Positions 42,135 through 57,948 of a stretch of 64,000 nucleotides of DNA are shown piece by piece. The translations under genes were made by a program, and so were the position numbers. The notes under the pieces are model-generated. The model was not told the DNA's origin and ran no database searches. It saw nothing but the letters and a program-made list of their open reading frames with translations. Each line of letters starts with the position of its first letter. The stretch's first letter is position 1. The DNA lies in contig CALPWQ020000001.1 of assembly GCA_943327315.2 (NCBI GenBank), positions 627-64,626 on the forward strand. Reading direction: 5' to 3'. This stretch comes from Chitinophaga pinensis. GTDB taxonomy: Bacteria; Bacteroidota; Bacteroidia; Flavobacteriales_D; Crocinitomicaceae.

Positions 42135-42194
42135 TTTAATTTCAATTATAGCTTAAACAAAAAAGGTCTCGTTTATCAACGAGACCATTTTCAG

Positions 42195-42276
42195 TGCGGA
42201 TGGAGGGACTCGAACCCGCATACCTCTCGGCACCAGATCCTAAGTCTGGCGTGTCTACCAATTTCACCACATCCGC
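42195..42276 (-). tRNA. tRNA-Leu (anticodon TAG)
   Basis: The reverse complement folds as a cloverleaf: acceptor GCGGATG/CATCCGC, anticodon stem CCAGA/TCTGG with loop CTTAGGA, long variable arm, T-arm GGGTTCGAGTCCC. No encoded CCA. Confidence 0.93.
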
Positions 42277-48091: not shown

Positions 48092-48580
48092 GTGCAGAAA
48101 AATCAATTGACCATGCTCAACTTCGGCATTGTGCAACTGAACAAATTGCCAACGCACCCCGACAAGCTCAAGCGGATCTTCGACCGAGTATCAGGAATAA
48201 TTCAAGAGTACCATCCAGATGAATTGGCCATTGAAGCGCCATTTTTTGGGAAAAATGTGCAATCCATGTTAAAACTTGGACGCGCTCAAGGTGTGGCGAT
48301 CGCTGCAGGATTAAGTCACAACATTCCTTTTGAAGAATATTCACCAAAGCGGGTAAAACAAGCCGTTACTGGCAGTGGAAGTGCCTCAAAGGAACAGGTG
48401 GCGGCCATGTTGCAAAAGCTCCTTAAATTCGAAGAGATGCCAAAGTATCTTGATGCAACGGACGGATTGGCCGTTGCTGTTTGTCACCATTTCTCGAAAG
48501 GCATTGGTGAACACAATAAAGCGAAGGGTGGTGGATGGGATTCCTTCATTCGCCAAAATCCAGACCGTAAAAAAGAATAG
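48023..48580 (+). CDS. ruvC: crossover junction endodeoxyribonuclease RuvC
   Basis: IILGIDPGTTIMGYG...ELAIEAPFFGKNVQS...AKEQV...DATDGLAVAVCH. Confidence 0.93.
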   Translation: MVEDKIILGIDPGTTIMGYGLIHVQKNQLTMLNFGIVQLNKLPTHPDKLKRIFDRVSGIIQEYHPDELAIEAPFFGKNVQSMLKLGRAQGVAIAAGLSHNIPFEEYSPKRVKQAVTGSGSASKEQVAAMLQKLLKFEEMPKYLDATDGLAVAVCHHFSKGIGEHNKAKGGGWDSFIRQNPDRKKE

Positions 48581-48581
48581 C

Positions 48582-49226
48582 ATGAGTGGAGAACAGCGCT
48601 CCAAAATTGTGTTTTGGCCCCTTATCTCAATCGGCGGAATCCTCCTTTTTATGGTCTTATATCTGCTCGCTGCCTTCAAGTATCCTGGAGGGTCAGCAGT
48701 GAATGTGCACGAACTTGGCTTCAGCTGGCGCAACAATTATTGGTGTGAGCTGCTCGGGGAAAATGCTAAAAATGGTGACGCAAATACGGGCCGTACGTAT
48801 GGTTTGTTGGGCATGATTGTCCTGTCCATCTCCATTTCCATTTTCTGGTGGAACATTCCAACCATTGTGTACGAAAGGAGCAAATCCATTCGGAGCTTTA
48901 TGCGCTATTGCGGCATATTGTCCATGGTGTTTGCCTCCCTGATTTTCACCAATTGGCACGACGGCATCATCTATGTCGCAGTGATCTCAGGGACCATCGC
49001 TTTTACATTGCTGTTTTATGAGTTGTTTCGGAACAAGCGAGACTTCCTCTCCTACTTTGGTATTGTTTGCTTGGCGTTTATTTTCGCGAATTGCATCATC
49101 TATGTGAGCAATTTCGGCATTGACTTTCTTCCTCTGCTTCAAAAGATCACCTTTGGAATAACCTTACTATGGATCACCCTTGTCATTTTACAGTTGAAAA
49201 AACACCCCTATTCGCATACGTCATGA
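48582..49226 (+). CDS. integral membrane protein (DUF998-like, 6 TM)
   Basis: The ATG at 48582 follows the ruvC stop. The track's 48375 start overlaps ruvC and is rejected. Confidence 0.6.
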   Translation: MSGEQRSKIVFWPLISIGGILLFMVLYLLAAFKYPGGSAVNVHELGFSWRNNYWCELLGENAKNGDANTGRTYGLLGMIVLSISISIFWWNIPTIVYERSKSIRSFMRYCGILSMVFASLIFTNWHDGIIYVAVISGTIAFTLLFYELFRNKRDFLSYFGIVCLAFIFANCIIYVSNFGIDFLPLLQKITFGITLLWITLVILQLKKHPYSHTS

Positions 49227-49588
49227 TGAAAAAACATAAGCCCAACAAGAACATCCTTTCACCCAAAGACTTTGCCCTTCGGATGATCAAATTCTTTTTG
49301 ATTTCCATGAGTTTTATGGCCATTTCTCTGTTCATTGGAGTCATTGGTTACCGCCATTATGCCAACCTTTCTTGGGTTGACAGTTTTTACAATGCCTCAA
49401 TGATTCTCACGGGAATGGGACCTGGAAATGTGCTTACGACTACGGGAGGCAAAGTATTTTCATCCCTATACGCCTTATTTAGTGGAATCGTTTTTCTAAC
49501 CACCGCTGCGATTTTCATTTCACCGATTGCGCATCGACTGCTGCATGTGTTGCACGTAGATGATGAGGAACTACCTGAAGAAAATTAG
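49223..49588 (+). CDS. small 2-TM K+-channel-like pore-domain protein with divergent filter
   Basis: ATGA overlap with the upstream gene. TM1, pore-helix-like WVDSFYNASMILTGMGPGNV, then TM2 (compare canonical TxTTVGYGD). Confidence 0.6.
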   Translation: MMKKHKPNKNILSPKDFALRMIKFFLISMSFMAISLFIGVIGYRHYANLSWVDSFYNASMILTGMGPGNVLTTTGGKVFSSLYALFSGIVFLTTAAIFISPIAHRLLHVLHVDDEELPEEN

Positions 49589-49602: not shown

Positions 49603-52600
49603 TTATCTAAATGAAAAGGCAGCGCCAATTTGTCCTTTGACCGCTTGGATTTCTGTTTCAATCCATTTCGGGAAATCAAGAAGAATTTGGTCATTTATTG
49701 TCACCCATTTTGAGGCACTGATGGCATAATCAGGAGCATCACCGAACAACACATCAACACGCATGCTGATCCACTGATGCCAAGCCGTCGGTTGAAAGCG
49801 AATATAACGCGCTAATACAGCGTTTGTGAAATTATTTTCCGAGAGGCTATCACGGTCCGTATTTGCAGGAATATCAACACCAATGGTGTCCCATGATTTT
49901 CCATCACTTGAAACAAAAAGATTGTACGATTTTACCCATTGATCCTGATTAAATCTTCCTTGGGTGCATACTCCCCAAACGGTTTTGACTTCTCCCAAAT
50001 CAATTTGAATCCACTGATTCTCATCTGACTTTTTGCTTGACCAATTGGCAAACTTCGGTTCACTGTTGATCCGCGCTAATTTTGCTGCGTGATTTTTATT
50101 GAAATCCGACGATGCACCAAAGGCCTCATCACTCAATACTTCTCTGCCCCACTGCGCATCAGAAAGCTCCGGTTTGTTCCCATTTTCTCGCAGAATCCAC
50201 CCCTCATTTTCTCGCATGAAGGTGTGAAAATCATTGGCCAATTGAGGTCCCTTTTTCACGCTTTTCAGTGTCATCGTCAGTCCAATCACTAAGTTAGATG
50301 GATCGTTTGCATTCAGCCCCCAACCTATCCAATGGTACCCTTGTTTCTTATTCGACGCAGCCACATAATCTAAATAGTATAGTCCTTTGGCGATATCCCG
50401 TTCCACTTTTATTGAATTCCCAAAACTCTGTTGTAACTCTCCATTCAACAAGGCATCCATGAGATGGTCGACACGCGACTGAAGCTCTGTGAGCGAGTGA
50501 ATTACTGGCGTTAGGCCAAGATAATCCAAGTAGTTCTTGGACGCACACAACGCGAATTCATCCACAAACGAAAGCGCAATTTGAGGCAATTGTTCGTGTA
50601 TTTCTTCTGTACTAACTTTTTTTCGATAGACGATGTGACCTGGTCTGTAATTGCGTTCAAAATCCGCATTCAAAAAATGAAAATCTTGCAGGACATCATC
50701 AATAGAAGTATGGTAGTCATTGATTCGTCCGCCACTACTTAAGGTCATGTGAAAATATACATCATTGGTGATGTAATCCGCAACAAAATCAAAAGAAAGC
50801 CGAACAATGTATCCATCCAAAGTAGAAACAACCCGGTAGCACATTTTACCACCTTGCGGGGTGCCAGCGATATCTTTGGTTACCTTACCTGAAGGTTTAA
50901 AATAGCGTTCTACCCCTGCTTCAATTTGATTAAGACATAAACGAATTTCCTCTTTGTTTTTTGCAAGAGGATCTATGATATCAATTAAGCTATTTTCATA
51001 ATCCTGAATAATTTCAGGAATGAGCACATTGAATAAATTGAACGTAATATCGAACGATTCAACGATTAATTCTGGATTATGAATGGTTTGTTGCGCGTCA
51101 AAAACAAACTGTATTTGCTCAAACCCATAATCGAAGTGAAAGGTCCAAGGGTATTTTTCCATCACCTCACTGATCGTACCGTAACTGTCATTTCCATTGC
51201 TATTCCAAAGCACTAGATTTTTGTACTTTTTGAACTCTTTTTCATATTTCAGCAAGAACTGAAACAGATTTCTTCGTGTGATTGCGAGCAATAAACCGAA
51301 GTGTTCAATCGATTTTTGGTCCTTCCAGTCGGGCAAGAAACCAACAGCCATCGATCCTGAACCGTACGCGGAAAGATGCAATGAAAGCGCTGCTTTAGTA
51401 ACTGCATTTTTCGGAAAAATACTGCACCAGGCATAGCTTGCCATGTTTCCAATTTGCCATTGATTTTGTTTCGTTCCCCATTCTAGACCACCATCTGTTT
51501 GCAGTAGTTTCAAGCGCAACTTTACAAATTGTTCCAAACTGGTGAAGGCGAATTTGTGCCAATATTCTTTCGACATCGCATTCGATGAATCGCCAACAAT
51601 TTTGTAATTGCTTGTTCCTCCTCCACTGTTCAAGCGATCCATGCTCATGATCCACGACCGGGCTATCGTTAGCGAATGAAAAGCAGACAGTTCTTCCTTT
51701 GAAAAAGAGACCGTCTCAGATTTTCTTGCGTCAATTGGATCAACGCCTAAGGCATAGGCCCTTGAATCGAACAGCTTGTCAAATGCATTGGGATGAACCC
51801 CGTATTGTTCGCCCATTAATTTCAAGACCAATTCGTTAAACGTCTTGTTTCGTATGGCTGCATCAATGGCATCCATGAATCGAGCATCAATTTCAGGGAA
51901 GGGGTTATCGATGTCCAATTCGGCTGCAGTTTGTAGAATGATCTCCTTTACTTGCTCTGAATTTAAACCCAGCTTCGTTCTAGATACGGATTCCAAAAAA
52001 CGAAATTCCTCCATGCTGATTTGCTTATCCTCCAAAGCAACGACAATGTGTTCCTTAAACTCAGAAAGCGAGCTCATTTTTCGGAGTTCTTCTTGTTCCT
52101 CTTTGATCCGCTCAACCGCCTTTGGATCGGGTTGAAGTAAGACTTTCCAATCGGCAGGCAATAAATGCTCGTTGGAATTCAATAAAACACGCACACCTTC
52201 GGGCAGTTCGAGATTTACATTGATCCGCTTTGAGTGGTCACCATCTTCAATATTGAGCACAATGACATTCTGATCGTTCTCAGAAACGATGTACTGATCG
52301 TAATCCCAGAGTGGATTTAGTTGATCGAGAACGCCCTGTATAGCCAACTCTAATGGCTCCAAAATGAAACGGTAACAATCGTCAGTGAATGGCCAATTGA
52401 TGGTTTTTCCTTTGACTTCGTAAATGGGATGAGCAATTTTATTTCGAAGTTCCACGAACTTGCTAAAAAACTGATTTAAATTACACTTCTTTAAGCTTGC
52501 TCCCTTCCTTGCCTGAATACATCTGTCATAAAGATTGTCTTTGTCATCAGACTCAACAACCTTCTTCAGGATATCCATGCAGGCGATGAAGTTGGCCAAG

Positions 52601-52914
52601 ACCTCATTTTGTTGCTCTTTGCGAATTAAATCATCCAGCAAAGAAGGCTTTTGACTATCAGCCAAGTGTTGACTTGTGTTTCTCACCCACCCGACATACG
52701 TTCCTACAGACAGTGACTTTTTCGTGTTGATGATCTCTTTTTCAAGCGACATAAGATGCGTACCTGTCTCTTTATATTCCGCCAAGACGAAGGAGCACAC
52801 ATGCATGATTAAACTCTCACCTAAATGCAAAAGGTAACGCTGACGTGCTTCGTAAAACTTTGCTTTGGCAATGTCATCCAAGGATTTAATGAACGATTGA
52901 GGGAGTCTAGACAT
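49603..52914 (-). CDS. orphan 1,103-aa protein: HEPN-like N-terminal domain (RNKIAH), unknown central regions, C-terminal F5/8 type C (discoidin) domain
   Basis: Uninterrupted 3.3-kb ORF. First ATG at 52914 (track start 52962 is GTG), with a TACCTTTC -7-like box ~17 nt upstream. FVELRNKIAHP fits the Rx4-6H HEPN motif. NQWIQIDLGE...ARYIRFQPTAWHQWISMRVDVLFG is a discoidin domain. No signal peptide, TM segment or Walker A seen. Confidence 0.85.
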   Translation of the reverse strand: MSRLPQSFIKSLDDIAKAKFYEARQRYLLHLGESLIMHVCSFVLAEYKETGTHLMSLEKEIINTKKSLSVGTYVGWVRNTSQHLADSQKPSLLDDLIRKEQQNEVLANFIACMDILKKVVESDDKDNLYDRCIQARKGASLKKCNLNQFFSKFVELRNKIAHPIYEVKGKTINWPFTDDCYRFILEPLELAIQGVLDQLNPLWDYDQYIVSENDQNVIVLNIEDGDHSKRINVNLELPEGVRVLLNSNEHLLPADWKVLLQPDPKAVERIKEEQEELRKMSSLSEFKEHIVVALEDKQISMEEFRFLESVSRTKLGLNSEQVKEIILQTAAELDIDNPFPEIDARFMDAIDAAIRNKTFNELVLKLMGEQYGVHPNAFDKLFDSRAYALGVDPIDARKSETVSFSKEELSAFHSLTIARSWIMSMDRLNSGGGTSNYKIVGDSSNAMSKEYWHKFAFTSLEQFVKLRLKLLQTDGGLEWGTKQNQWQIGNMASYAWCSIFPKNAVTKAALSLHLSAYGSGSMAVGFLPDWKDQKSIEHFGLLLAITRRNLFQFLLKYEKEFKKYKNLVLWNSNGNDSYGTISEVMEKYPWTFHFDYGFEQIQFVFDAQQTIHNPELIVESFDITFNLFNVLIPEIIQDYENSLIDIIDPLAKNKEEIRLCLNQIEAGVERYFKPSGKVTKDIAGTPQGGKMCYRVVSTLDGYIVRLSFDFVADYITNDVYFHMTLSSGGRINDYHTSIDDVLQDFHFLNADFERNYRPGHIVYRKKVSTEEIHEQLPQIALSFVDEFALCASKNYLDYLGLTPVIHSLTELQSRVDHLMDALLNGELQQSFGNSIKVERDIAKGLYYLDYVAASNKKQGYHWIGWGLNANDPSNLVIGLTMTLKSVKKGPQLANDFHTFMRENEGWILRENGNKPELSDAQWGREVLSDEAFGASSDFNKNHAAKLARINSEPKFANWSSKKSDENQWIQIDLGEVKTVWGVCTQGRFNQDQWVKSYNLFVSSDGKSWDTIGVDIPANTDRDSLSENNFTNAVLARYIRFQPTAWHQWISMRVDVLFGDAPDYAISASKWVTINDQILLDFPKWIETEIQAVKGQIGAAFSFR

Positions 52915-52992
52915 GTACTGTAAATTGAAAGGTATTTTGAAAATTTCCTTAAAAATAAGCACATTGCATCAATCTATCCAATAAAAAGAAAA

Positions 52993-53311
52993 ATGCAAAT
53001 ACTTGCAATAAGACGCAACAACTATTTGTTGGACAATAGCAGCCTGCTCTCTGCTCATTGGAGTCACTTTTTACCTGAATTACGCCAATTTTTATTGGAT
53101 AGACAGTTGCTACATTGCGTCAATGAATCTAAGCGGAATGGTCCATTGAAGTATCCCAACAACGACTGGAGCCAAAGTTTTTTCGTCGCTATACGCCTTA
53201 TTTAGTGGAATCGTTTTTCTAAGCACCGCTGCGATTTTCATTTCGCCAATTGCCCACAGGCTTTTGCATCTGTTGCATGTGGATGATGAAGAACTTATTG
53301 AAGAAAACTAA
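52993..53311 (+). pseudogene. decayed paralogue of the 49223..49588 channel-like gene
   Basis: Relative to the intact copy it has an 8-nt deficit (frameshift) near 53045..53056 and an in-frame TGA at 53147..53149 (GGA in the intact copy). The C-terminal 47 codons still read GAKVFSSLYALFSGIVFLSTAAIFISPIAHRLLHLLHVDDEELIEEN. Confidence 0.8.
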
Positions 53312-53363: not shown

Positions 53364-54809
53364 ATGCTGAAGTCATTCACATGCCTAGTCATATTCTATA
53401 TTTCTCTTTCTCAAATTTCTGCAGTTGGACAAAGTTCCAAATGGTCCACTCAAATTGAGAACGCCAATATTTTTTCCTCTCCTAGATTTGCTGATCTCAA
53501 CAAAGATGATGTACTCGATGTGATCATAGGTGCTGGGATGGAAGGATTAGAAAGCACAAATGGAATCGTTGCCTTCAATGGCGCAAACGGTGAAATTCTT
53601 TGGAATGTCAAGACGCACACACAGATTTACACCAGTGCACTATTCCAGGACATCACGAATGATGGTATCCCTGATGTTTTCATTGCAGGGAGAGACGCTG
53701 CCTTCTATGGCATCAATGGGTTAAACGGAGAAATTATTTGGGAGTTTTGGCCCAATAAAACCGAACCCGCTCGAAAGCAAGGGTGGTTAAATTTCTTTAC
53801 AACGCAATTCGTTGATGATCAAAATAATGATGGAATCAAAGACCTTCTAACAACAAATGGTGGTGACTATTTGGCAACTGCAAAAAAAAGAGATCGACCA
53901 ACTGCAAAACTAATGCTCTTGTGTGCTAAGACTGGCAAAATAATATCTTCATGTCAATTTCCTGAGAAAAAAGAATCGTATTATGCTCCGCACACCTATA
54001 CGACGAGTGAAGGTGAAACTATGATTGTATTTGGTACGGGTGGAGAAACCATAGATGGAGCACTTTGGCAGGTGCCTCTTAAAAAATTAGCCCAAGGAAA
54101 TATTTCCAAGTCTGAACTCATCGCACGAGATAAAATGAAAGGCTATATTTTGAATTCATTGCTGGCAGATTTGAATCGGGATGGAACAGCTGATCTGGTT
54201 ACTGTAGGGATGAGCTCAGCCATTGTTGCGCTAGATGGTGCTAATTTTAAGCCAATGTGGGAACATTCATTCGCAGGATACGAATGTTATGTAACCCCAT
54301 CCTTAGGACAAATGACCAGAGATTCAATTCCGGATGTTTTTACGATTCTTGCAAAGGGAACCTTCCCGAGTTATTCCAGTTTCAAATTGATCGTTATTGA
54401 CGGCAAAACTGGGGACATTGTCTGGCAAGAAGATTCTGGTTTCAACCAATTCTCTCCAGCGGTGCTCGCTGATTGGAACGAAGATGGAATTGACGAAATC
54501 ATCTATGTCCAAAATTCATTAGTTGATCCACAAAAGTTTTTCGTAGTCAATCAAGTTCGAGTGGTAGATCTAGAGAATGACCAAAACTGGTTCGTCGGAC
54601 CAATTAGAAATGGTGTCTCTATGGCCGCCTCTCCGGGTTTACTCGATCTAGATGGAGACGGCCAGTTCGAATTGCTTGTAGCCACATCTTCTATTGTTCC
54701 CCAAGGCACAAACCCTTTCAGTATAATTGAACGGATTGATTTACAGAAATCATTCAAATCAGTTCACTGGGATGGATATTTAGGGCCGAAAGGAAACGGA
54801 GAATATTAA
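53364..54809 (+). CDS. secreted FG-GAP / PQQ-like beta-propeller repeat protein
   Basis: Signal peptide. Repeated DLNKDDVLDVIIG, DITNDGIPDVFIAG, DDQNNDGIKDLLT, DLNRDGTADLV, DWNEDGIDEII, DLDGDGQFELLV motifs. Confidence 0.75.
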   Translation: MLKSFTCLVIFYISLSQISAVGQSSKWSTQIENANIFSSPRFADLNKDDVLDVIIGAGMEGLESTNGIVAFNGANGEILWNVKTHTQIYTSALFQDITNDGIPDVFIAGRDAAFYGINGLNGEIIWEFWPNKTEPARKQGWLNFFTTQFVDDQNNDGIKDLLTTNGGDYLATAKKRDRPTAKLMLLCAKTGKIISSCQFPEKKESYYAPHTYTTSEGETMIVFGTGGETIDGALWQVPLKKLAQGNISKSELIARDKMKGYILNSLLADLNRDGTADLVTVGMSSAIVALDGANFKPMWEHSFAGYECYVTPSLGQMTRDSIPDVFTILAKGTFPSYSSFKLIVIDGKTGDIVWQEDSGFNQFSPAVLADWNEDGIDEIIYVQNSLVDPQKFFVVNQVRVVDLENDQNWFVGPIRNGVSMAASPGLLDLDGDGQFELLVATSSIVPQGTNPFSIIERIDLQKSFKSVHWDGYLGPKGNGEY

Positions 54810-54827
54810 ACCCACATTTCGCCGCAA

Positions 54828-56456
54828 CTAATTCATTTTAATCGGGACTGGATTCTTCCCTTTTATCATTCGATATACCTGACCTGATTTCAAGTTGCTA
54901 AACTTAGAACTTGTGCCATCTGTCCAAAAAATCTCAAGCTCTTCGAGGTAATTTTCTTGGTCCAAACCATAATATAAAACAGCTGTCGATTGAGATGCTT
55001 GTCCACTGCCAGCATCCACCTCTTTCATCAAATTCCTGCTATGTTGCTTAAAAACAACTTGGCAACCGAAGCAATCTTGATTGACACCGTCATCTCCTTC
55101 CAGAATAATTCCTATCCAATGTAAAGCCTTCGTATCATTTCGAAACAACTTTATTTTTTGTTCAATTTTAGCGAATGCCGCCCAAGGCAATTTGACAACA
55201 GAAGAGACAATGTCCAAATCGCCATCATGATCAAAATCAAATACCGCTGCCCCTCTGTGGGAAAGGATATCATTCAAGCCGACTTCAGCGGAGATTTCAG
55301 TGAAATGACCCTGATCGTTTAAAAAGAACTTATTGGGATCGCGAATTACCGTTTTAGGAACCAAGGTGGCGACATTCCCCTTTGTTACATATAAATCGAG
55401 ATCTCCATCAAATTCAAGGTCAAAGAAGATTCCACTCCAGCTGGTTCCGCGAATTGAATCTTTCTCATAAGTGAGATCGACTTTTAAAGCTCGGGCCTGA
55501 TCCACCAATTTGCCTTTGTCATTTTGATAAAGATAATTTCGCCCGATGTTTGTCACATAAAAATCTAAATCTGCATCCTCATCGTAGTCACCTTGACCAA
55601 TTCCCATTCCATACATGAAATTTTCAAAACCATTTTCACGTGTTGCATCGCTAAAAATAGGTTCAGGGAATTCATTTCTGAAGTACTTATTTCCCTCACC
55701 AGTCCATTCACCGAAATCATTCAACAGCAATAAATCTTGGTCACCATCGTGATCCACATCAGTAAAACTCGCAGAAAGGCCACATCCACCATCGGAAATT
55801 CCATACTCATTCGCGCATTCAACAAATGATTTCCCGTCCTTATTCAATAACAACTTATTCTCTAAACATTTCGCATCATAGCCAATCACGACTCCATTGG
55901 AATCCGTTATACCTCCCATAGAGGCGACATAATTGGTGATATAGACATCAGAAAATCCATCTTTATTGATATCTCCCCAGCATGCTGATGAAAAATTACC
56001 CGGAGCAATAACCTTCTCTAAGCTGATCAATTCAAACGATTCGCCTTTGATATTTTTCATGATTGCCGGTGCATGCTTATCACCACGCCCCATTCCTACG
56101 CCATAATTCGCGACAATGAAATCTCTATATCCATCGTTATTGTAATCTGCGGCAACGGCACCCTGAATAAAATATCCCGATAGAGCATTCAATCCAAAAT
56201 CAGCCGTGCCATCTATAAAGAATCCACCTTTATTGATCCAAAGTTTGGAATCAAACACACCTCCCGCTTGGAAAAGATCCTCCCAGCCGTCATTGTTGAC
56301 ATCAATGACCATCACACCGCCACCGGCCATCTGAAAATCATTACCGGGATAAAGATAATTCATGCCTTTTTCCGAAGAGACCTCCGTAAAATGGACTTGG
56401 CCATGTGCTTGAAACAGCGCATTGATGCAGAAAAAAACAAGAGAAAATCGAATCAT
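54828..56456 (-). CDS. CRTAC1-family protein (FG-GAP/VCBS repeats plus ASPIC/UnbV C-terminal domain)
   Basis: Repeats VNNDGWEDLF, YNNDGYRDFIV, INKDGFSDVYI, VDHDGDQDLLL, FDHDGDLDIV. C-terminal UnbV-like GSGQASQSTAVLYYGL. ATGA overlap with the upstream gene. Confidence 0.8.
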   Translation of the reverse strand: MIRFSLVFFCINALFQAHGQVHFTEVSSEKGMNYLYPGNDFQMAGGGVMVIDVNNDGWEDLFQAGGVFDSKLWINKGGFFIDGTADFGLNALSGYFIQGAVAADYNNDGYRDFIVANYGVGMGRGDKHAPAIMKNIKGESFELISLEKVIAPGNFSSACWGDINKDGFSDVYITNYVASMGGITDSNGVVIGYDAKCLENKLLLNKDGKSFVECANEYGISDGGCGLSASFTDVDHDGDQDLLLLNDFGEWTGEGNKYFRNEFPEPIFSDATRENGFENFMYGMGIGQGDYDEDADLDFYVTNIGRNYLYQNDKGKLVDQARALKVDLTYEKDSIRGTSWSGIFFDLEFDGDLDLYVTKGNVATLVPKTVIRDPNKFFLNDQGHFTEISAEVGLNDILSHRGAAVFDFDHDGDLDIVSSVVKLPWAAFAKIEQKIKLFRNDTKALHWIGIILEGDDGVNQDCFGCQVVFKQHSRNLMKEVDAGSGQASQSTAVLYYGLDQENYLEELEIFWTDGTSSKFSNLKSGQVYRMIKGKNPVPIKMN

Positions 56457-57787
56457 TGCTTCGTGCAGTTAATTGACTTCAACACATAGGACCCAATGAT
56501 TCGTCCAAAATACAAACTCGTATCTAAGGTTGTTTTAAAATGAATGCCGCCATAAAATCGAGACATTGAAATCTCCTCAGACAATTGAGTAAATGACGCA
56601 TAGGTTCGAGCAGTGCCATCGATGTCAGACCTCCAGATGTTTGTGTTGTCACTAAATTCTAATGTATCTGAAAAATACTCTTTTAAGACCTGAGTTCCTG
56701 CACCAGATTGAAATGAATGTCCCGATGGGAACTCTGGAAATGAAGGCGTAGCAATAAACGTATTAAATTGTGGGTCTATAAATCTCTGAATATAGGAAAT
56801 TGGCCTCAATAAATTAAATGTGTATTTCAACTTCCAACAATGAATAAAGGCCTCATTGATGGCCACCCCCATTTTTACATACAGTTCCATCGCCTTGGCT
56901 GGCGCCAATTTTCTTTGTTCGACCAACTGAAGCGCCAACTGCATTAAATGTCCCGTTGGCGTTCCCGAATAACCTGGCGAATCATCCCAATATTCTGCAA
57001 TCAGCTCATGCGCAGGATTTGGTTCTTTAGCTGTTTTATAGAGTAAAAGTGCATCCTTAAACATTGGAGAATTTTCTTCCTTTGAAAACGGCATAGGTTT
57101 GCAGCCAATGAGCAGACTGTCACCTCCAAAAATCAAGTGTTTATTCAAACCCCAAAATGGCTGAACAGCTGAGAAATATCCAGGAGTTGTTTTTGTCCAG
57201 CAGGAATAACAAACAGGAGGTTTATAGTCTTCCGGATAATTTTTATTGAATCCTTCATCTGACCCATCATTTTTAGACCAATCGATGATCATTTGAGCGA
57301 TATCATTTCCGTACTCCAAGGAAAGTCTGCGCTTTTCACGGGAAATATTGCGCGAATAAGATCGCTCAATAGAATCCGAAAGTGCTGCGACTCTTAAGGC
57401 ATTCGAGGGCGGCATATTTCGGTATAAGTATTCCAAAATTCTCTTGTCTACAGTATTTGCCACCAAACACCAATCAATGAGCGCGGGATCAGAAGACCAC
57501 TTATTCCTTTGATAGCCATCTAATTGACCAGATAGTGATTGCTGCTCTGCATACAATTCAACGGTACTTTCAAAAATACCTATGGTAAAATATGCATAAG
57601 CTCGCGCGCTTACAGGTGCAGAAAATCCCACCGTATTTTTCGTGAGAACAAATGACTCCTTAATCCATCTATTATGAATCATGAGGCACTTATCCTGTTC
57701 CGCGATTTTCAATCCGAATACCTGTGTAAAATTGCTTAGAAACAAAAGGAAACTGAAGGTCCTGAACATGGTAGAAATTGACATCAT
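56453..57787 (-). CDS. vanadium-dependent haloperoxidase-like / PAP2-superfamily protein, secreted
   Basis: PAP2 signature in three parts: KYTFNLLRP, PSGHS, SRFYGGIHF. Signal peptide. Confidence 0.75.
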   Translation of the reverse strand: MMSISTMFRTFSFLLFLSNFTQVFGLKIAEQDKCLMIHNRWIKESFVLTKNTVGFSAPVSARAYAYFTIGIFESTVELYAEQQSLSGQLDGYQRNKWSSDPALIDWCLVANTVDKRILEYLYRNMPPSNALRVAALSDSIERSYSRNISREKRRLSLEYGNDIAQMIIDWSKNDGSDEGFNKNYPEDYKPPVCYSCWTKTTPGYFSAVQPFWGLNKHLIFGGDSLLIGCKPMPFSKEENSPMFKDALLLYKTAKEPNPAHELIAEYWDDSPGYSGTPTGHLMQLALQLVEQRKLAPAKAMELYVKMGVAINEAFIHCWKLKYTFNLLRPISYIQRFIDPQFNTFIATPSFPEFPSGHSFQSGAGTQVLKEYFSDTLEFSDNTNIWRSDIDGTARTYASFTQLSEEISMSRFYGGIHFKTTLDTSLYFGRIIGSYVLKSINCTKQ

Positions 57788-57948
57788 GTAAAAATAATGA
57801 AATTAACCATTCTGTTCAACCATTTTTCCCCACAGCATGCGAGCAATTCCCAATCTTTCGATGTGGATTATTTATTCACTCAAGGCATTCATACGTGTTA
57901 TTTCTATCCTCATCAATCGTTTCTAGGAGCATTCCAAAAGCAATTGTT

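Follow-up and report, generated by a model that had tools for sequence, protein, structure and literature searches.

The window analysed here is a 64,000-nucleotide stretch of bacterial DNA (contig CALPWQ020000001.1) whose minus strand carries a giant gene, an uninterrupted open reading frame (ORF) at 49603..52914. Our tentative reading, to which we give somewhat less than an even chance, is that this gene encodes a self-contained cytoplasmic HEPN ribonuclease (RNase) of the abortive-infection (conflict) type, with a sensor at its C-terminal end. The conflict part of this reading is supported by the status of the gene as an insertion, by its sparse distribution (31 loci in a search of one genome per species across 185,579 species) and by the conflict-type genes that lie next to its homologues. 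The HEPN and defence interpretation, which had been raised in an earlier note made from the letters of the window alone, is plausible and has been somewhat strengthened by the sequence analysis described below.

The ORF list and the translation give a protein of 1,103 amino acids (aa) from the first ATG, in agreement with the 3.3-kb minus-strand ORF of the earlier note. The frame stays open upstream to a GTG at 52962, and homologues share the Met of the first ATG as their start in alignments. A protein identical to the window's product (P0001) is present in public assemblies.

The head and the HEPN question

The proposed catalytic motif of the head, RNKIAH (window 52429-52446), lies within the segment FFSKFVELRNKIAHPIY, which corresponds to aa 149-165. 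The pattern R[NDH]x3H arises in 13.7% of shuffles of the window protein, and therefore a bare motif match is not evidence when taken alone. The motif carries weight because it is invariant across homologues. In a family alignment of 32 sequences that reaches down to 23% identity, R157, N158, A161, H162 and P163 never vary, so that R, N, A and H of the motif are all fixed, a point that the earlier note had wanted checked. The other invariant residues of the head are E33, E46, Y47, E58, G71, Y73 and R78. Among still more remote heads (27 to 42 sequences), the H is invariant and the R and the N are each retained in at least 90%.

An AlphaFold2 (AF2) model of aa 1-440, with the family alignment as input, has a predicted local distance difference test score (pLDDT) of 85, rising to ~90 in the head. 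The modelled chain consists of helices to residue 161, a hairpin (164-173), a helix (178-198), a small barrel (206-253) and then a helical region. Helix 146-161 ends in R157..H162, at the start of the loop toward helix 178-198, and helices 94-137 are inserted between the early and late core helices of the head. A survey of the HEPN superfamily describes a four-helix up-down bundle with an Rx4-6H motif and a polar residue (N, D or H) after the R (Anantharaman et al. 2013, PMC3710099). The placement of the motif in the model agrees with that description, the agreement being one of secondary-structure order only.

Profile searches with family members and isolated heads return a small and consistent set of sub-threshold matches. 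HEPN_RiboL-PSP (PF18735) aligns over the motif helix of 10 of the 32 full-length members (best E 9e-4). Heads on their own, 27 of them taken from the wider superfamily, were also compared with 24,736 Pfam models. Six matched the same family (best E 3e-4), among them the head of the window protein (E 0.0039); two matched HEPN_Apea and one Abi_2, and there were just six unrelated singleton matches. The window protein aligns at aa 136-162 to the PADLOC model RTasHEPN (E 0.042), and no stretch passes. Membership of the RiboL-PSP family itself was rejected, since every match falls below 28.4 bits and the locus has neither an L-PSP fusion nor a ParB operon.

The searches also supply points against a HEPN head. 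No head match reaches a curated Pfam threshold, the best being 17.6-19.6 bits against the 28.4-bit cut-off of PF18735. Foldseek, given the 440-aa multi-domain model, found no match at E<1e-3 in the Protein Data Bank (PDB) or BFVD and no HEPN protein in its top 50, and PDB profile searches with the head, with a broad head set and with aa 1-930 gave chance-level matches only. Short helical bundles score poorly in Foldseek and PDB profile searches. We do not read these negatives as refuting a HEPN fold, because of that poor scoring and because the query was a 440-residue multi-domain chain. One weak Foldseek match, DUF1054 (3mqz, Foldseek probability 0.85), is a lead only. The HEPN head proposed by the earlier note has thus held up in the conservation of its motif across 32 members and has gained no HEPN match from Foldseek or PDB profiles, an outcome that the note had listed among those that would refute it. 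The convergent sub-threshold Pfam and PADLOC matches, together with the motif placement in the model, lend the identification weak support, and we consider that the head is probably a HEPN-fold domain.

The distribution of the head bears on its role. When 1.84 billion representatives were searched exhaustively with a profile of aa 1-930, 149 superfamily members were recovered, many of which match solely at profile positions ~5-200, in proteins of 400-1,260 aa, and the head is always N-terminal. The Pfam domains that follow it in these remote relatives are NB-ARC plus TPR (P0133), AAA_16 or nSTAND3 plus TPR, a protein kinase (P0126), GHMP kinase, HSDR_N, DUF3320, an Eco57I/MmeI methylase, FGE-sulfatase and PEGA. 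Proteins with N-terminal HEPN followed by STAND and TPR modules have been described in the Swt1-like group (PMC3710099). Judged by its domain partners, the head is a mobile effector-type module, placed like an immune effector domain in the remote STAND/NLR-type proteins. A second tier of relatives, proteins of ~850 aa, has both the head and the centre up to ~residue 660 in common with the window protein. Among the homologue searches, P0107 matched itself alone, and a fragment alignment of the broad head set gave two matches.

These results bear on a quite different view of the head, namely that it is a non-nuclease helical scaffold or interaction domain with a conserved RNxxAHP turn. The whole would then be a large cytoplasmic protein for binding or structure, with ligand binding by the discoidin domain as its only recognisable activity. 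We regard this as doubtful. R, N and H never change among highly divergent sequences whose surrounding helices vary, the weak matches converge on related HEPN families with no scatter, the motif lies where a helix gives way to a loop, as it does in HEPN domains, and the head occupies the effector position of STAND proteins. In its favour are the lack of a structural or above-threshold profile match to HEPN, the frequency of the bare motif in shuffles, and the readiness of all-helical domains to draw weak spurious profile matches.

Discoidin tail, central regions and cellular location

The discoidin tail seen in the earlier note is confirmed by Pfam, in which F5_F8_type_C (PF00754) matches aa 934-1053 at E 3.2e-27; the score is 95.6 bits, where the cut-off is 28.2, and the alignment takes in profile positions 4-125 of 127. 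PDB sequence matches of the tail, down to 1e-22, are to the factor V/VIII C domains, neuropilin b1, lactadherin and the Dictyostelium discoidins. By score and alignments the tail is a clear member of the F5/8 type C (discoidin, CBM32-like) domains, and Pfam detects such a domain in 28 of the 32 relatives. Characterised F5/8 type C domains act outside the cell or on membranes. The window domain differs from the characterised F5/8 type C proteins in that it is predicted to be cytoplasmic and is joined to a nuclease-like head.

The earlier note had found no signal peptide, transmembrane (TM) segment, type IX secretion system (T9SS) C-terminal domain or Walker A motif, and simple tests agree on all four. 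The highest Kyte-Doolittle mean over 19 residues is 1.46, under the usual TM level, and the N-terminus is hydrophilic, leaving no signal peptide, lipobox or TM anchor by these measures. A Pfam scan of the window protein yields nothing besides F5/8 type C at E<=1, and in particular no T9SS C-terminal domain or Por_Secre_tail. A script found no Walker A motif and Pfam no P-loop/NTPase family, and the candidate identity of the window protein as a STAND/NLR (Avs-like) protein was ruled out on these two grounds. The absence of a Walker A motif and of any 19-residue window above 1.46, together with the hydrophilic N-terminus, lets the prediction stand that the protein is cytoplasmic, as far as such tests go.

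Between head and tail lie a small barrel, a helical region and a large centre. Weak Foldseek matches of the barrel (E>0.05) are mostly to S1/CSD-bearing RNases (RNase R, Dis3L2, Rrp44), ribosomal protein S1 and eIF5A; they give a bare hint that the modelled barrel might bind RNA. The stretch EDKQISMEEF... at ~aa 295-326 had suggested a TerB module (PF05099) to the earlier note, and this idea found almost no support: the window protein is unmatched at E<=1, and one of the 32 members matches at E 0.022.

The centre (aa 441-930) is modelled by AF2 with a pLDDT of 87.7 and a predicted template modelling score (pTM) of 0.84. It has no Foldseek match in the PDB at E<1e-3, and aa 1-930 gave no PDB profile match; Bet v1-like Foldseek matches are weak and serve as leads only, and hhalign detected no internal repeats in the region. 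Within its sub-domain aa 470-612, residues W479, N484, W486, Q487, G489, W496 and P501 are invariant. The idea that W479..P501 resembles the McrB N-terminal DUF3578 motif was dropped, as it had no Pfam or structural support. This 'WQxG' central sub-domain is also found C-terminal to a Ser/Thr protein kinase (P0175 aa 525-648). Mean identity to the window protein, taken per segment, is highest in aa 470-612 (55%), the helical region (54%) and the head (51%), lower in the discoidin domain (43%) and lowest in aa 672-775 and the C-terminal tail (26% each).

Table 1. Window positions of the giant gene, the segments of its product and the features of its insertion site
Feature	Position	Strand	Basis or remark
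Whole gene, 1,103-aa protein	49603..52914	-	Stop codon 49603-49605; ORF list and translation
Head, aa 1-205, all-helical, HEPN-like	52300..52914	-	Alignments; AF2 pLDDT ~90; sub-threshold HEPN matches
RNKIAH, aa 157-162, candidate Rx4H catalytic motif	52429..52446	-	C-terminal end of helix 146-161
Small beta-barrel, aa 206-255, possibly S1/OB/KOW-like	52150..52299	-	AF2 strands 206-253; weak Foldseek matches
Helical region, aa 256-440, holding the conserved stretch L-x-D-x-Q-I-S-x-x-E-x-x-F	51595..52149	-	Alignment; AF2
Central alpha/beta region, aa 441-930, without recognisable fold	50125..51594	-	AF2; no PDB match
Most conserved central sub-domain, aa 470-612	51079-51507	-	Per-segment conservation
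F5/8 type C (discoidin) domain, aa 934-1053	49756..50115	-	Pfam; PDB matches; translation
C-terminal tail, aa 1054-1103, poorly conserved	49606..49755	-	Not a T9SS sorting domain
Left repeat copy	49325..49587	+	3' part of intact small membrane gene 49169-49588; foreign type from ~49426
Right repeat copy	53048..53310	+	Degenerate gene fragment; carries the displaced native end of the gene in its 3' part
DNA absent from empty-site contig L037	49570..57935	.	Giant gene, repeat copy and 4.7-kb FG-GAP/FG-GAP-ASPIC/PAP2 block

Relatives, insertion site and gene neighbourhood

The protein had been called an orphan, and this description has not survived. A search of 5.8 billion proteins found 31 full-length relatives of ~1,100 aa, at 27-100% identity, among them two 968-aa forms that lack the discoidin domain (P0017 is a natural discoidin-less homologue). 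To these are added the 31 genomic loci and the 149 representatives of the wider superfamily; a more distant protein has 849 aa. All 31 loci are in metagenome-assembled genomes, nearly all labelled Flavobacteriales, Crocinitomicaceae or Bacteroidota, and many come from lake samples. The sole name given to the family in any source is 'discoidin domain-containing protein'. The earlier note could not place the protein in a named defence family, and in PADLOC it likewise matches no model.

The earlier note had also placed the gene inside an insertion, and this claim is borne out by an empty site in a close relative and by a chimeric repeat at the junctions. The empty site is found in a metagenome contig (L037, 1-1906), which matches window 48353-49569 at 89.6% identity and then resumes at 57936. 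The relative L004 has the giant gene and the adjoining gene fragment and is missing a 4.7-kb FG-GAP/PAP2 block, a second insertion that is nested in the same hot spot. The interval 53364-57787, missing in both L004 and L037, encodes two FG-GAP proteins (one with ASPIC/UnbV) and a PAP2/vanadium-haloperoxidase-like protein.

A 263-nt direct repeat flanks the giant gene, with one copy at 49325-49587 and the other, 79% identical, at 53048-53310. The left copy belongs to the small gene at 49169-49588 on the plus strand, which is the convergent neighbour of the earlier note, and the right copy is the degenerate gene fragment (53048-53310) that the note had recognised on the other side. In a three-way alignment with the empty-site sequence, the informative sites switch at ~49426 (Fisher p 1.7e-10): before this point 34 of 35 liken the empty-site sequence to the intact copy, and after it 19 of 23 liken it to the fragment. 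The switch therefore argues that the intact small gene is a chimera, with a native 5' and a foreign 3' part, and that its native 3' end is displaced to the far side. Such an arrangement bears the signature expected of single-crossover integration of a circular 3.7-kb unit that would have carried the giant gene and a stretch of homology. No integrase is present within the 3.7-kb unit or nearby. The event must be old, because it is common to relatives at 83-97% protein identity. The empty site and the repeat support the view that the giant gene is accessory, inserted as a single gene in a variable hot spot.

Two further features of the window were noted. A 24-nt inverted repeat (49283-49306 and 49671-49694, 92% complementary) extends across the 3' ends at which the small and giant genes converge; one arm is just left of the 263-nt repeat, and the other falls within the part of the giant gene that codes for the tail. 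The sole tRNA gene of the window, a tRNA-Leu (tag) at 42194-42276, is next to the trigger-factor gene, and there is no integrase close by.

The surroundings of the homologues vary by subfamily and support a conflict-type context. Directly upstream of a homologue 83% identical to the window protein (L041, 1-8887; L042, 1177-4221) lie genes for a STAND NTPase (AAA_16/NPHP3_N) and for TPR-type proteins of very large size. Another subfamily adjoins GmrSD, HipBA, an HSDR_N protein and a transposase fragment; a second GmrSD stands beside an unrelated family locus, so that GmrSD occurs in two unrelated loci. Yet another subfamily adjoins WYL, TerC and PRTase_3 genes. Restriction, toxin-antitoxin and STAND genes are accordingly to be found beside some of the homologues, whose surroundings the earlier note had suggested inspecting. 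The variable slot of L041/L042 holds a 497-aa STAND NTPase, a 513-aa protein and proteins of 1,070 and 1,208 aa (TPR faint), and this upstream gene set looks like a separate candidate defence system.

Other neighbours recur as well. A CorA-like protein, which also counts among the conflict-type neighbours, has 442 aa and two C-terminal TM helices (PADLOC E 8e-10) and is paired with a 160-aa protein that has no known family. The pair (L013 8173-9973; also L008, L011, L012, L015, L016, L021, L022, L024, L025 and L033) is found in at least six arrangements and is often accompanied by a DUF481 protein. In eight loci (L009, 5620-9882; L010, L014, L017, L018, L019, L023 and L027) the gene is adjoined, usually divergently, by a gene for a protein of 1,380-1,420 aa with ~six C-terminal TM segments and no Pfam family; one pair of the giant gene and a 1,380-aa membrane protein lies between the housekeeping genes purK and rplS/gldH. 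DHH-like motifs near the N-terminus of the ~1,400-aa membrane protein were judged by eye. An obligate partner was considered and rejected, as there is no homology between the ~1,400-aa membrane protein and either the CorA-like or the 160-aa protein, and none of them is present in the window. Finally, in a subfamily at 45% identity, a 282-aa secreted Endonuclease_NS with an N-terminal hydrophobic segment is encoded co-directionally 22-27 bp downstream (L034 6725-7573; L046 12331-13182; L008 13333-14181), which suggests an operon with the giant gene. None of these recurrent clusters is present in the window. The picture of a gene standing alone does not extend to every relative: the CorA-like pair, the ~1,400-aa membrane protein and the secreted nuclease recur beside it in other subfamilies.

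The secreted nuclease 22-27 bp downstream in one subfamily and the recurrence of membrane proteins nearby raise the question of export, as does the usual extracellular location of discoidin domains. The protein could be a toxin or lectin released by a non-classical route (contact-dependent, as type VI cargo or by lysis), with the HEPN domain attacking competitors and the discoidin domain binding glycans of the target cell. This would be very unlikely for a protein with no signal peptide, TM segment or T9SS domain. In addition, polymorphic toxins have their toxin domain at the C-terminus, and the toxin-like domain here is at the N-terminus; no candidate immunity gene is conserved next to the gene and none is present in the window; and there are no secretion-system genes in the loci examined.

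Several observations weigh against the conflict reading. The immediate neighbours of the giant gene in the window are ordinary genes, the surroundings comprising RuvC, an LPG-synthase-like protein, a GT2 glycosyltransferase, an ABC-F ATPase, the small channel-like membrane gene 49169-49588, the two FG-GAP genes and PAP2. The GC content of the gene equals that of its surroundings, with no anomaly, and close relatives hold the gene at one chromosomal site beside ruvC and the ABC-F gene. A tblastn search with aa 1-930 found no match in plasmids or phages, a family scan of IMG/VR found no relatives, and the window protein matches no defence model in PADLOC-DB 2.0 or NCBIfam. The association of homologues with conflict genes is qualitative, judged by eye over a handful of loci.

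Much of this would also fit a cellular role, in which a lineage-specific cytoplasmic protein for RNA processing or stress has an active HEPN-like head and a discoidin domain that binds an endogenous sugar-bearing metabolite or envelope precursor. Several lineages keep the gene near ruvC and ABC-F, the composition is unremarkable, phages, plasmids and viral contigs lack the gene, no defence model is matched, and conservation is strong in the head, the helical region and aa 470-612 (51-55% mean identity). We nonetheless consider a cellular role unlikely, given the empty site in a close relative, the sparse distribution, neighbours that vary by subfamily and are repeatedly restriction, toxin-antitoxin or STAND genes, and the use of the head as the N-terminal module of NLR-type proteins.

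Proposed mechanism and known systems

The mechanism that we infer for an abortive-infection RNase, from HEPN fold and RNase activity through dimerisation and discoidin sensing to an anti-phage role, would run as follows. The head of ~205 residues would be a divergent HEPN domain from the neighbourhood of Abi2, Swt1 and RiboL-PSP, in which R157, N158 and H162 form a metal-independent RNase site. One would expect a homodimer or higher oligomer as the acting form, because HEPN RNase active sites need two motifs and there is one HEPN domain here. The small barrel behind the head may aid RNA binding, and the well-conserved aa 256-930 would act as a regulatory and oligomerisation scaffold that holds the head off. 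The discoidin domain, absent in some relatives, would be an exchangeable module for ligand recognition; the RNase would be turned on when this module is occupied and would then arrest the infected cell. A more specific version, which as a whole must be called improbable, is that the discoidin domain senses a phage glycan or glycosylated macromolecule and acts through a scaffold of ~500 residues with a novel fold; a new family of HEPN RNase would thereby dimerise and become active, and NLR-like, kinase-linked and restriction-linked systems across bacteria would also use its head as their effector.

The closest likeness is to the HEPN Abi2/Swt1 group (RiboL-PSP PF18735, AbiD/AbiF Abi_2 PF07751 and Swt1-like fusions; PMC3710099). 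As in that group, R-N-x3-H lies at a helix end with a further helix after it, the domain is all-helical with inserts, and the relatives' head stands N-terminal to STAND NTPase plus TPR and to restriction-type modules; the sole recurrent, weak Pfam matches of the head fall here. However, there is no curated-threshold or structural match to the group, and the window protein has a beta-hairpin between the motif and the last helix. The 490-aa region and the discoidin domain are not among the partners listed for the HEPN families in the same survey, in which the word 'discoidin' occurs 0 times (PMC3710099), and no paper listed by literature searches on discoidin with HEPN, anti-phage or defence-island topics mentions it.

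ApeA, DARNA and AbiD/AbiF resemble the window protein in that an HEPN RNase and its own regulatory or sensor part share one polypeptide, with no antitoxin gene. ApeA and DARNA are reported to be activated upon infection and to cut host tRNA. The window protein is far larger than these proteins, its middle and C-terminal domains are unrelated, and it does not match their PADLOC models. The likeness to bacterial NLR/Avs-type STAND proteins is one of design, the same head standing in the N-terminal effector place and the logic of effector, scaffold and sensor being alike.

If the proposed reading is true, the head defines a new HEPN family that Pfam, NCBIfam and PADLOC currently miss, and many STAND, kinase and restriction-type proteins use it as their N-terminal effector. 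The centre of 490 residues, which is confidently modelled and has no structural relatives, is by itself worth pursuing for fold discovery. The empty site and the chimeric repeat would record how a lone defence-like gene can enter a chromosomal hot spot with no integrase involved. The protein would also be an unusual case of a lectin-type domain used as an intracellular sensor of infection, and it would come from the freshwater Flavobacteriales, an under-studied group whose defence repertoire is largely uncharted.

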